From NCBI RefSeq assembly GCF_039596395.1, contig NZ_JBCNJT010000001.1, forward strand, positions 715,315 to 779,314: a DNA stretch of 64,000 bases. The letters are read 5' to 3'. Source of the stretch: Fluviicola sp. Lineage in GTDB: Bacteria > Bacteroidota > Bacteroidia > Flavobacteriales_D > Crocinitomicaceae. Below are positions 7,899 through 58,424 of this stretch, piece after piece. Made by a program: the position numbers and the translations under genes. Every line of letters starts with the position of its first letter. The stretch's first letter is position 1. The notes under the pieces are model-generated. The model saw only the letters and a program-made list of their open reading frames with translations, searched no databases and was not told where the DNA came from.

Positions 7899-7985
7899 GT
7901 TTAATGTTCAAAGAGTTCAAGCGTTCAATGTCTCAATAGCGACCGGTATCAATTTTGAACTTTTTAAACCATTGACCTTTTGAAC
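7899..7985. repeat. Palindromic element made of GTTCAA(AA)-type tandem units
   Basis: Left arm GTTTAAT GTTCAAAGA GTTCAAGC GTTCAAT; right arm TTTTGAAC TTTTTAAAC CATTGACC TTTTGAAC. Confidence 0.75.
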
Positions 7986-7998
7986 GAAAACAAGAAAT

Positions 7999-20250: not shown

Positions 20251-20717
20251 GATTCTTTTACGCTGCAGACCGGTTCGTGAGTAACCGGGAAATTACAGGA
20301 GTTTGCAATGAAGCATTGTTTGTTGGCCTCGTGATGCAGGCTGTTTGCCAATTCAATTTTGGAAGCATCCGTAATAAGTACTTTCGGACGCAGTATGACA
20401 GATGTGAAACGGCCGCCATCCGGATCCTGGATCATGGTTCCGACCGGTTCATCCGTGTATTCGATGACCTGAATTCCTGCATCGGCGCATAAGTGGAAGT
20501 ACCACAACATGTGACAGCTGGAAAGGGAAGCTAAAAAGAAATCTTCCGGGTTGTGTTTGGTTTTGTCGCCACGGAAAGGCACGTCTGCCGAACAGAGTAA
20601 ATCGGGTTTATCGGGAATCTGAAGGGTGAATTCTCTTCCATAAGCGGCGTAATCGGATGTTCCGGTTCCTTTGTTGCCTGTCCAGGTGACAGTTGCGTGG
20701 TATGTGTGTTCTTTCAT
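20247..20717 (-). CDS. OsmC family protein
   Basis: NPEDFFLASLSSCHML, CFIANS. Confidence 0.92.
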   Translation of the reverse strand: MKEHTYHATVTWTGNKGTGTSDYAAYGREFTLQIPDKPDLLCSADVPFRGDKTKHNPEDFFLASLSSCHMLWYFHLCADAGIQVIEYTDEPVGTMIQDPDGGRFTSVILRPKVLITDASKIELANSLHHEANKQCFIANSCNFPVTHEPVCSVKES

Positions 20718-20720
20718 AGA

Positions 20721-20786
20721 AAAAGTTCAAAAGTTCAAAAGTTCAAAAGTTTCAGCCGCGGCTGATTCAAAGTTCAAAAGGTTCGA
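20721..20786. repeat. AAAAGTTC tandem array with central TCAGCCGCGGCTGA palindrome
   Basis: AAAAGTTC x3, palindrome at 20752-20765, then TTCAAAGTTCAAAAGGTTCG. Confidence 0.8.
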
Positions 20787-20787
20787 C

Positions 20788-21447
20788 TTATTTTTCGTTC
20801 TCCAATACAAAAGTAGAAAATTGTCTTTCTACCGGATCTCCGGCTTTGGTGTGCACGGTTTCGGTTTGCCGGTCTTCCAGTTTCAGGATGAAGGAGCTTT
20901 TTTCCACCAATTTCATTACTTCATCGGGATTATACAGGGTAAAGCCAAAAGGAGTAAAGGGAAGTGTTTCCATAAAACTCCGGTGTGCGAAGGTTAGTGA
21001 AAACAGGGCTTTGGGTTTTAATATGCGGGATAGTTCCGTTAGTGTTTCCAGAGGATTTTCCCAGAAATAGAGGGTGTTTACAGTAAACAACTTGTCGAAC
21101 CGATCGTTTGCAAACGGAGTCTTGTTACCATCGTAGAGCACAAAATCGGCTTGTTTGGCAGCTACAAATGATTGATTGATTTGTTTTGCCTGGCTGTTCA
21201 TAAGCGTTGAGATTTCTAAACCCGTATAGTGAATGTGGTCGCTTTGGGCGAAGAGGTATTCCAGGTGACCGGCGTTCCCATGACCTAATTCCAACACAAC
21301 ATCTCCGGGAGACAAATTTAAATTCAAAATGGCATTTTTGGTCATCCCGATATTGGTTTCATGCATCATTTGTGCAATCTCGCTGCCTTTCTCTCCTGAA
21401 GGATGACTCAATTGGGAAGCCAATTCTATTAATTGTTCTTTCTCCAT
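20788..21447 (-). CDS. Class I SAM-dependent methyltransferase
   Basis: VLELGHGNAG motif I, TGLEIS, FDKLFTVNTLYFW; start reassigned to MEKEQ (21447). Confidence 0.9.
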   Translation of the reverse strand: MEKEQLIELASQLSHPSGEKGSEIAQMMHETNIGMTKNAILNLNLSPGDVVLELGHGNAGHLEYLFAQSDHIHYTGLEISTLMNSQAKQINQSFVAAKQADFVLYDGNKTPFANDRFDKLFTVNTLYFWENPLETLTELSRILKPKALFSLTFAHRSFMETLPFTPFGFTLYNPDEVMKLVEKSSFILKLEDRQTETVHTKAGDPVERQFSTFVLENEK

Positions 21448-21485
21448 TTTTGTGTTTTTACGAAAATAAGCATTTGAATCAATTT

Positions 21486-21573
21486 TCCCTCTTTGAAGGG
21501 GGATTAAGGGGATGGTCACCCCTCTCTGTCTCTCCCGCCGACTTCCTGTCGGGACAGGCTCCTCAAAAGGAGA
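21486..21573. repeat. Composite REP-like element with nested 27-nt palindromic insert
   Basis: TCCCTCTTTGAAGGGGGATTAAGGGG...ACCCCTCTCTGTCTC[TCCCGCCGACTTCCTGTCGGGACAGGC]TCCTCAAAAGGAGA. Confidence 0.7.
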
Positions 21574-21668
21574 AGTTTAGAAATTCGCCTCTCCATTGTA
21601 ATCGTAACCAACAATTAATATTCACCTAACGTCAAAACTCCGGAATATGGGGAATTTTGCGGCAAAAA

Positions 21669-22295
21669 ATGGAACTTTTTATCAGTGTTTTCGCCGCTTT
21701 ATTCTCTGTTTTGAACCCTTTGGGAACGGTTCCCGTTTTTGTTGGACTGACCAGGGACGACACCAAGCACCACCGGGATAAAACCTCTCTCTGGACTTCC
21801 GTCAATGTGTGTATAATTTTATTGATCTCTTTTTTTGCGGGGAAGTATGTGTTGAATTTTTTCGGGATCAGTATTAACTCCCTGCGTGTTGCCGGCGGAT
21901 TGATCATTGCTACTTCGGGTTTTGCCTTGCTTACCGGATCTTTTACCAAGCACAAAGGAATGAAGAAAGCGAGTGTGCAGGAAGATCTGCAAACACGCTC
22001 GGAAGTTTCTTTAACGCCGCTGGCAATTCCAATGCTGGCCGGTCCGGGATCTATTTCGTTGCTGATTACTTACAACCAAACGTTTGATAACAAAGAGCAG
22101 CACCTGCTTTCGGTTTGTGCGATTATTGCTGTTTGCCTGGTGATTTACCTGATCTTAAGAACGTCACACTTTATTGTGAAGGCACTTGGTGCTTCAGGGA
22201 TTAATGCCATTTCTCGGATCATCGGGTTTATTGTGATTGCGATAGGTGTGGAGTATGTTTCTTCGGCGGTGCAGGAGATTTTGAAAATTAAATAA
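21669..22295 (+). CDS. MarC family membrane protein
   Basis: FSVLNPLG, SLRVAGGLI, PLAIPMLAGPGSI, SRIIGFIVIAIGVE. Confidence 0.92.
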   Translation: MELFISVFAALFSVLNPLGTVPVFVGLTRDDTKHHRDKTSLWTSVNVCIILLISFFAGKYVLNFFGISINSLRVAGGLIIATSGFALLTGSFTKHKGMKKASVQEDLQTRSEVSLTPLAIPMLAGPGSISLLITYNQTFDNKEQHLLSVCAIIAVCLVIYLILRTSHFIVKALGASGINAISRIIGFIVIAIGVEYVSSAVQEILKIK

Positions 22296-53286: not shown

Positions 53287-54099
53287 TTAAAATAATTTCG
53301 TCTTAAAGATCTTCGGGCGGATGGTGAACTGTTCTTTGGTTTGTTCTTCCCTGCGCCAGAGAATTCCCATGCGTCCCAGATCAACGGAAACATGGAAACG
53401 CGGATCGGAGGAGAGGTATTTCCAGCAATCCCACATGTCTTCGCTCCAGCGGATATCATCCAGGATGAATGCGGTGTTGCTGTGTGTCTGATCGAATAGT
53501 TTGTCGATGTATTCCATGGTGGCTTTCCCGGAGTGATTTCCGTCCAGGAAGACCAGGTCGTATTTCCCGATTGCGGGAAGTTCCAGGAAATCGTCGAAAG
53601 AACTGCAAATGGTTGTAATACCGGAAAGGTTCCAGCTGTCAAACTGCCTGGATGCACGCGATAGAATGGCATCGCAGCCTTCAACGGTAATCAGATGCCC
53701 GGAAGGATTACCGGACTTTAAATGAATGGAGCCTGTTCCGATGGATGTTCCCAGTTCCAGCATCAATGCGGGTTTGTAGTGGTTTGCCAGTTTCCATAGA
53801 ATGTCGCCGTAAATGCCTTTGCTGCTGGCGTTTTTTGCAAGTTCTGAAACGGAACGGCTTGTCCCGGCCATGCGGGAAGTCTTTCCCATTTGTTTGGATC
53901 CTGCACCTAAATCGATTATTTTAAATTGTTCCGTATCCTTTTTGACTTTTTGTAGCCATTTTTTTCGTGCAGAGAGAAAATTTTTATCCACTTTTGTCGT
54001 TAGACAGTTGTCGACAAAGTCGAATACAAAGGGAGAATGAATGCCATGTCTGCCTTTAGATTTGAGTAAAAATCCGAAAATTGATTTGGAATTTTGCAT
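53287..54099 (-). CDS. O-methyltransferase-like class I SAM methyltransferase
   Basis: HGIHSPFVF, DLGAGS, LELGTSIG, FLDGNH, ILDDIRWS. Confidence 0.9.
   Translation of the reverse strand: MQNSKSIFGFLLKSKGRHGIHSPFVFDFVDNCLTTKVDKNFLSARKKWLQKVKKDTEQFKIIDLGAGSKQMGKTSRMAGTSRSVSELAKNASSKGIYGDILWKLANHYKPALMLELGTSIGTGSIHLKSGNPSGHLITVEGCDAILSRASRQFDSWNLSGITTICSSFDDFLELPAIGKYDLVFLDGNHSGKATMEYIDKLFDQTHSNTAFILDDIRWSEDMWDCWKYLSSDPRFHVSVDLGRMGILWRREEQTKEQFTIRPKIFKTKLF
53857..53877 (-). mobile_element. Candidate 21-nt in-frame mini-palindromic insertion
   Basis: TCCCGCATGGCCGGGACAAGC = codons 75-81 (SRMAGTS); same termini as the 21533-21559 insert. Confidence 0.55.
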
Positions 54100-57627: not shown

Positions 57628-58341
57628 ATGAAAAAGCTTCTGATACTGTTATTCGTTTTGAATTTGTTTTCATATTCCAATGCACAAATTGAAAATGACA
57701 AATGGAGTATAACCGGTGAGTTGATGCTGCCTGCCGGATTGGGAAATAAAATGTTCAAGAATTATCTGAACGGATTGGTATACGCCCATCCGAAAATTCA
57801 GTACAAACCGTTTAAACACTGGTATGTGGCTTTCGGACCGAAATACATGTATTACAAAGTGAACCAGTTCCGTATCCCGTTTGAACCGGGAGTCAGTGAC
57901 GATTCTGTTTCCAATCACCAGAAAGTATATTCCATGACCGGCGGAATGCACGTACTTGGAGGCGATATTGAACTGGGATGGACGAGTTGGGTCGGGCCGC
58001 GTTTAGGCCTGGAATTCGGTGTGCGCGGTGGAATTGCGCAGCATTGGTTCAATACTTCCGGCACGCGTGCTTACGGAAAACAGGAAGTAGTAGCAGCTTA
58101 TGTTGAACCGCTGATCTCTATCGTACTGGCATCCGATGAAGCGGTTGCTTACCGCTGGATAGTGGGATACAATTTTACCGGATACAAATTTACCGGCAGC
58201 CGCATCGGTTCCACGACTTCGGGCGGATATTCCGAGAAGGATCTGAGGGGCCCGACACAATCCGTGTTTGTCGGCTTTGCCATTTCCCTATATTTCAATA
58301 ATCAACGTTCAGACGTGTTCCTGGATGAGCCGGCAGAGTAG
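57628..58341 (+). CDS. Hypothetical outer-membrane beta-barrel protein
   Basis: Signal peptide MKKLLILLFVLNLFSYSNAQ; alternating beta-strands. Confidence 0.75.
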   Translation: MKKLLILLFVLNLFSYSNAQIENDKWSITGELMLPAGLGNKMFKNYLNGLVYAHPKIQYKPFKHWYVAFGPKYMYYKVNQFRIPFEPGVSDDSVSNHQKVYSMTGGMHVLGGDIELGWTSWVGPRLGLEFGVRGGIAQHWFNTSGTRAYGKQEVVAAYVEPLISIVLASDEAVAYRWIVGYNFTGYKFTGSRIGSTTSGGYSEKDLRGPTQSVFVGFAISLYFNNQRSDVFLDEPAE

Positions 58342-58345
58342 CAAA

Positions 58346-58424
58346 GTTTAATGGTTCAAAAGTTTAAAAAGGTCAAAAAACTGTGAATTCCTTTTGAACG
58401 ATTAAACAAATTTATCTTTTGAAC
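58346..58424. repeat. Palindromic element of GTTCAAAA units (same family as 7899-7985)
   Basis: GTTTAATG GTTCAAAA GTTTAAAAA GGTCAAAA ... TTTTGAAC GATTAAAC ... TTTTGAAC. Confidence 0.75.

Follow-up and report, generated by a model that had tools for sequence, protein, structure and literature searches.

A probable mini-hairpin insertion within a BoxC/PIT-type module pair of Fluviicola

Described palindromic repeats and the element at 21,486–21,573

The closest described systems are REP and REPIN sequences with their RAYT genes (Nunvar 2010, PMC2817692; Bertels and Rainey 2011, PMC3116915; Ton-Hoang 2012, PMC3333891). In REP/RAYT systems, the RAYT gene is flanked by two inverted copies of the repeat (Nunvar 2010, PMC2817692). 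REP-targeting insertion sequences (IS1397, ISKpn1, IS621 and ISPpu9/10) are mobile elements that land inside palindromic repeats, as does the small guest that we describe here; however, they are 1 to 2 kb long and encode a transposase (Tobes and Pareja 2006, PMC1525189), whereas our guest is 21 to 28 nt long and encodes nothing. BIMEs (mosaics of REP types) and nested MITEs are, like our elements, modular composites in which small palindromes are joined in arrays by variable linkers. The units of a BIME lie side by side, whereas in our case the hairpin loop of one unit holds the other. Rickettsia palindromic elements are in-frame palindromic inserts in genes, about 100 to 150 nt long. The modules and mini-hairpins described below can likewise lie in frame, adding short peptide loops to leuS and to a methyltransferase gene at 53,857 of our sequence; in contrast, they are only 21 to 33 nt long, unrelated in sequence and mostly intergenic. 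Our elements belong to a known kind, that of REP-like mini-palindromes and nested repeats. What is new is their habit of nesting in loops, their very small size and the in-frame example in leuS.

The window that we analyzed is a 64,000-nt stretch of a Fluviicola genome (G000). The element at 21,486–21,573 lies in a region of ~200 nt between two divergent genes and is thus in the shared upstream region of both. One of these, on the reverse strand (20,788–21,447), encodes a class I SAM-dependent methyltransferase (Pfam Methyltransf_11, E = 1.4e-12), and the other, on the forward strand (21,657–22,295), a MarC-family membrane protein (Pfam MarC, E = 2e-53). A tandem AAAGTTCA repeat (AAAGTTCAAAAGTTCAAAAGTTCAAAA) is found just downstream of the methyltransferase gene, at 20,714–20,756, and has relatives among the units at 58,335–58,369 and 7,953–7,989.

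The outer element consists of two modules, both read here on the forward strand. Module A (21,486–21,515; nhmmer module profile, E = 2e-7) comprises a C-block/G-block hairpin, TCCCTC-TTTGAA-GGGGGA (21,486–21,503), followed by the spacer TTAA and a second G-block, GGGGATGG. Module B is an inverted copy of module A and is present in two parts. Its left part (21,517–21,532) contains the C-block CACCCCTC, the spacer TCTG and TCTC, the 5' arm of a terminal hairpin; its right part (21,560–21,573) contains the remainder of this hairpin, TCCTC-AAAA-GGAGA, and aligns to the TCTCCCC-TCAA-GGGGAGA hairpins of empty module copies. Between the two parts, at 21,533–21,559 on the forward strand, is a 27-nt mini-hairpin with a CAGGC tail, TCCCGCCGACTTCCTGTCGGGACAGGC. 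It belongs to the family TCCCG-N4-14-CGGGACARGC but has diverged, with two substitutions relative to the consensus TCCCGACGAGTTCCTGTCGGGACAGGC (25/27 match).

The original prediction had read these 27 nt as an insert that splits a REP hairpin. We confirmed that their removal from 21,486–21,573 gives TCTCCT-CAAA-AGGAGA, a hairpin that mirrors the left arm, and that CTCC is present on both sides of the insert (21,532–21,535 and 21,559–21,562). Because of this CTCC at both edges, the boundary of the 27 nt can slide from −1 to +3 nt with the product unchanged. The splitting itself holds only in part: the 27 nt do interrupt the hairpin, but a contiguous 5-bp hairpin, CTCCT-CAAA-AGGAG, still forms in the fold with the insert present, since the insert ends in a 3' tail that resembles a hairpin arm. 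As DNA, the site folds into four hairpins (z = −2.25). In this fold, the C-block of module B pairs with the G-block at 21,508–21,515, giving a middle stem of GGGGATGG/CACCCCTC, and GACAG of the 27-nt insert pairs with CTGTC of the outer element.

We interpret 21,486–21,573 as a composite that probably arose by insertion of the 27-nt mini-hairpin into a hairpin loop of a BoxC/PIT-type module pair. The four-hairpin DNA fold, the covariation of stems between copies and the position between two divergent promoters would also suit a regulatory RNA or protein-binding site in which the 27 nt form a variable extra stem. Such a functional site is nevertheless highly improbable, given that an Rfam search with the window region and seven related loci gave no family match, that as RNA the region folds no better than shuffled sequence (z = −0.8), that modules occur in both orientations and are even translated inside leuS, and that the orthologous intergenic region of seven sister genomes does not contain the element and in some holds unrelated repeats instead.

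A repeat search inside the window alone returned nothing at 21,486–21,573, and the family becomes visible only genome-wide. The 27-mer has no second copy in the window or in the whole genome. Because of this, the window cannot tell insertion in place from arrival as a composite, and the mobility for which this locus had been taken as direct evidence has to be sought in sister genomes, from which our evidence comes.

The outer element and its association with DUF559 genes

Genome-wide searching revealed that the two halves of the outer element are inverted copies of one module of ~33 nt. Module A has the general form TCCCCC-TTTGAA-GGGGGA-TAAA-GGGGGATGGC, and module B is close to the reverse complement of this form, GCCACCCCTC-TTAA-TCTCCCC-TCAA-GGGGAGA. 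There are about 20 occurrences in this genome (an nhmmer profile gives ~12 strong copies beyond the window), arranged as around six A+B pairs plus solo modules, and their stems covary between copies. Every other module copy in this genome is without the 27-mer, and some hold other inserts or a 60-nt internal segment.

By its design, we assign the outer element to the BoxC/PIT type of 'triplex motif'. BoxC/PIT/TMECO elements follow the formula C-block, N3-6, G-block, N3, G-block (Holder 2015, PMC4666352), and this three-block formula is satisfied by TCCCCC-TTTGAA-GGGGGA-TAAA-GGGGGATGG and its variants. Both our modules and the described elements have a pyrimidine block, a loop of 3 to 6 nt, a purine block, a loop of 3 to 4 nt and a further purine block, and both have variable loops and mark unstable loci (PMC4666352). 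The third block was the mirror image of the second in 17 modules versus 3, with 20 ties. No match to the E. coli consensus blocks CCCTCNCCC and GGGNGAGGG was found in the modules, whose blocks differ in sequence and are 5 to 8 nt long (CCCCC, CCTCC, CCCTCC), compared with the 9 nt of CCCTCNCCC. Furthermore, our modules occur in inverted pairs that bracket DUF559 genes and some of them are translated within genes, whereas TMECO has been reported as intergenic only and without a partner protein (PMC4666352).

The association with DUF559 is seen throughout the genus. Modules are present at 20 of 30 DUF559 loci, compared with none of 40 control loci, and about 12 of the 30 have the layout A(+)...gene...A(−). 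Both DUF559 genes of this genome are intact (131/132 aa; G000:C1:1862000–1863050 and G000:C1:1722400–1723300) and lie between a BoxC-like module A and its inverted counterpart. A miniature with a 60-nt interior, also in this genome, retains the internal ends of the DUF559 cassette. We regard the window copy as a gene-less miniature of such a DUF559 (Vsr-like) nuclease cassette. The REP label first given to the outer element thus gives way to that of a BoxC/PIT-type module, whose association is with DUF559 genes rather than with a RAYT. Our literature search on DUF559 found no description of module elements. Both DUF559 loci of this genome also have in common ~36 nt of upstream sequence (CTTCTTATCGTTAAGGTA...) beyond the module, from which it follows that the mobile unit of these loci may extend past the modules.

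Because the orthologous methyltransferase-MarC spacer does not contain the outer element in any of seven sister genomes, its presence in the window is a lineage-specific arrival, here in an insertion hot spot. The spacer is empty in G005, and other sister genomes have unrelated repeats at the same point. A MITE would have terminal inverted repeats and a target-site duplication; the outer element has its inverted modules, and comparison of the window with the empty intergenic region of G005 gave no clear duplication. The repeats found at this point of the spacer (21,460–21,656 in the window) are a CCGGTAGGGG...CCCTACC hairpin in G019 and G011, a palindrome of ~70 nt in G020 and G018, and a (GAATTAC)n tandem repeat in G001. 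The conserved blocks that flank the hot spot (GTTTTTACGAAAATA... and AACAATTAA.ATTCACCTAACGT) resemble two promoter or leader regions.

Filled and empty modules in sister genomes

A version of the 27-mer that is 25/27 identical to the window copy was detected 22 times in six sister genomes. When up to three mismatches to the core were allowed, 23 occurrences were found in 7 of the 36 genus genomes, and none with a reversed-pattern control. It had been proposed that copies of the outer element be compared for empty and filled states, and we find that empty copies are the large majority. Among modules of the matching subtype, 28 are empty and 8 are filled in G019, and 21 genomes have empty modules only. 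Hundreds of modules in all are without the 27-mer.

Little is understood of how REP-like sequences of 20 to 30 nt move, and clean filled/empty pairs are seldom available. The mini-hairpin system provides several, one of them inside an essential gene. In leuS, in-frame modules occupy a variable loop that is bounded by the NWIGKS and TTRPDT motifs, and the reading frame is kept in all 29 leuS alleles. An empty allele, ...TCCCCC|TCCGAAGGGGGAA..., is present in G049, G024 and G023. The allele of G019 is this same sequence with exactly 27 nt added at the bar, the TTTG spacer and flanks being equal, and it extends LeuRS by nine residues (SLSRQELVG). On a tree built from flanking leuS sequence and rooted by midpoint only, the three genomes with the empty allele are widely separated, with well-supported branches parting the clade of G023 from G049 and G024. 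Because the filled state is limited to G019 and the empty genomes are scattered over the tree, the difference arose by insertion of 27 nt.

In leuS, the 27 nt entered the hairpin loop at its 5' edge. The flanking repeat of the filled/empty pair is at most 1 nt, and the insertion was therefore without target duplication; the proposal that CTCC in the window represents such a duplication is accordingly not borne out. The broader claim, that a small palindrome has inserted into another repeat and is hence mobile, is supported by this orthologous pair, which differs by exactly 27 nt. This also matters for annotation: where LeuRS and other proteins contain short inserted peptides, a repeat origin can account for them.

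The leuS loop between NWIGKS and TTRPDT (G000:C2:740150–740360) is itself a hot spot, with a different palindromic insert in nearly every species of the genus. Its alleles disagree with the flanking-sequence tree, the allele of G019 being like that of G049 and the allele of G011 like that of G041, which suggests either recombination or repeated turnover.

All 23 copies of the 27-mer have the same position and the same orientation, in a B module. This would also be expected from amplification of a composite or from gene conversion between modules, and it counts against our main reading, as does the absence of a donor copy in this genome and of an enzyme tied to the mini-hairpin. Under composite amplification, the 27 nt would have entered one module once, long ago, and the filled composite would then have spread as a unit, so that the 27 nt were in place before the window copy arrived, with no insertion at the window locus or into other modules. 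The uniform context of the 23 copies, together with the uniqueness of the 27-mer in this genome and hence the lack of a local donor, is what such a history predicts. We had considered the diversity of spacers among filled modules as proof of independent insertions, but dropped this argument because empty modules likewise have variable spacers and far better conserved blocks; spacer diversity is thus not decisive against a composite. The leuS pair speaks more directly: since the alleles of G019 and of G049, G024 and G023 differ only by the 27 nt, a composite could not have arrived there without replacing the resident module. Filled copies are also found in module subtypes with differing, covarying arms (TCCCCC/GGGGGA, CTCCTC/GAGGAG and TCTCC/GGAGA). 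Finally, the left flank in the window (21,517–21,532) is identical at 16/16 positions to an empty paralogue of the same genome (C1:1862320) that has the same rare spacer, TCTG, a match that hints at a local fill event at the window site. On balance, we consider spread as a composite subfamily somewhat unlikely.

The same uniformity could reflect a homing-like process, in which a nuclease such as the DUF559 protein cuts empty modules and repair copies the filled module into them, spreading the 27-mer without its being a transposon. The strict module specificity of the 27-mer subtype would fit this process, as would the modules being conserved flanks of DUF559 genes, several of the filled ones adjoining such genes (G048:C24, G014:C165 and G019:C1), and the pairwise identity of 0.91 across the inner 27 nt, compared with 0.56 to 0.60 for the surroundings. 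However, the presence of the 27-mer among genomes does not track that of DUF559, homology amounts to only about 16 to 20 nt per side, and related mini-hairpins occur in hosts that have no module homology, including RAYT REP loops, other palindromes and the methyltransferase coding sequence, which conversion between modules would leave unexplained. Gene conversion of this kind is, in our assessment, a quite unlikely source of the filled modules.

The mini-hairpin family, its hosts and its possible movement

The 27-mer belongs to a wider family whose stem, TCCCG(A)/(T)CGGGA, runs into a conserved CARGC tail. The family motif TCCCG-N4-14-CGGGACARGC has 76 matches in the genus, compared with 2 control matches, and strict copies number 0 to 20 per genome. 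Its core is conserved throughout the order, where 45 of 201 genomes and 28 of 83 genera have the motif (~100 matches versus 14 in the control). The sixth stem pair covaries (A-T, C-G and T-A).

A second member in the window is the 21-nt mini-hairpin TCCCGCATGGCCGGGACAAGC (53,857–53,877, reverse strand), which lies in frame in a methyltransferase coding sequence. Its ends, TCCCGC and CGGGACA(A/G)GC, are common to the 27-mer; the shared termini that had been noted between the two are thus real and mark one family. The 21-nt insert is present in both G000 and G005, and the site is 21 nt shorter in at least 10 orthologues, the gap being directly visible in 9.

Mini-hairpins occur in B modules with several loop types, at the apex of unrelated palindromes and in coding sequence. 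Judged by these contexts, they are guests in at least three kinds of host palindrome. We found 17 of 31 mini-hairpin copies within a recognizable host palindrome, and a flanking stem of at least 5 bp at 8 of the 31, compared with 5% of control positions. No common target sequence was visible at mini-hairpin insertion points. Genome comparisons show a preference of these insertions for the interior or hairpin loops of other palindromes, an orientation that is fixed relative to the host palindrome, and polymorphism between species at orthologous sites without target duplication. The rule that these observations suggest, namely that guests land in the loops of other palindromes, points to a single-stranded DNA target.

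The mini-hairpin is similar to a REP in being an imperfect palindrome of 19 to 29 nt, with an invariant CARGC tail that is comparable to the GT(A/G)G head and palindrome of a REP, and in being without target duplication. Unlike REPs, which are extragenic and typically number over 100 per genome, mini-hairpins number 20 at most and some of their copies lie in frame inside genes. A genuine RAYT with inverted REPs also occurs in the genus (183 aa; NCBIfam NF047646 at 101 bits, for example at G049:C2), although RAYT homologues were not found outside Proteobacteria by Nunvar 2010 (PMC2817692) and the REP-RAYT unit here is in Bacteroidota. Inverted GGCACGAGC-loop-GCTCGCGCC REPs with GTAG-like heads lie on either side of this RAYT gene. 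These are a different palindrome from the mini-hairpin, which instead rides in their loops: 4 of 12 RAYT-flanking REP loops contain a mini-hairpin and 8 are empty, with orthologous loops empty in other species.

RAYT, the obvious candidate, is not supported as the mobilizer of the mini-hairpin, since its own REP is a different palindrome, it is present in 1 of the 7 genomes with the 27-mer, and it is absent here. This genome has neither an NF047646 RAYT nor a GGCACGAGC...GCTCGCGCC REP. Its sole Y1-transposase-like gene is of class II (MNSHAYFHLTT..., G000:C2:20900–22300, reverse strand) and has an apparent 1-nt frameshift after ...MSAEEE relative to intact 192-aa sister orthologues; no flanking hairpins were found at this gene. 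G008 has 20 mini-hairpins, yet only a different Y1 gene.

Returning to our preferred reading, insertion of the mini-hairpin into a module loop, we propose that the outer, gene-less miniature would have entered a variable site that separates two divergent promoters and that the 27-nt mini-hairpin would have inserted into the hairpin of the right module, at the 5' edge of its loop. Extruded hairpin loops of host palindromes could serve as targets for the mini-hairpin because they would be single-stranded. The guest may have moved as single-stranded DNA through an enzyme of HUH/Y1 type, a step to which we give somewhat less than an even chance. Polymorphic insertion without duplication, fixed orientation, loop preference, a conserved core and a guest without coding capacity all fit single-strand transposition of this type. 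The window copy itself is most likely a decayed fossil, since the genome has no other copy, one of the two substitutions in this copy breaks the consensus stem, RAYT is absent here and the only Y1 gene is apparently frameshifted.

More speculatively, and with considerable doubt, TCCCGA-loop-TCGGGACAGGC mini-hairpins could represent an undescribed class of hyper-parasitic repeats across Flavobacteriales, which would reside in the single-stranded loops of selfish palindromes (RAYT REPs and the BoxC-like ends of DUF559 cassettes) and hijack a hairpin-processing enzyme. If this were true, a guest in a host hairpin may disable the host repeat or immunize it against its own nuclease or transposase. 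Regardless, one genus joins three small repeats, namely BoxC-like modules with DUF559, RAYT REPs and mini-hairpins, and thus offers a compact setting for asking which enzyme acts on which hairpin.

Two further repeats were observed in connection with these elements. A second guest, GACGGAGTCTGATACTCGTCAGA, is unrelated to the mini-hairpin and has seven copies in this genome, all inside B modules (G000:C1:280116, 336542, 715171, 850455, 1076069 and 1856212; C3:423923), one of them ~140 nt upstream of the window start. It is also present in the leuS module of G011, where it accounts for 12 extra residues, and is absent there in G041 and G000. The other repeat, ACAGA(T/C)CCCGAAGTGTCGGGACAGGTGAACRCAGATGT, is another carrier of the mini-hairpin core, with ~10 copies at G000:C1:1214291–1224583 (within 10 kb) and C2:1394109.
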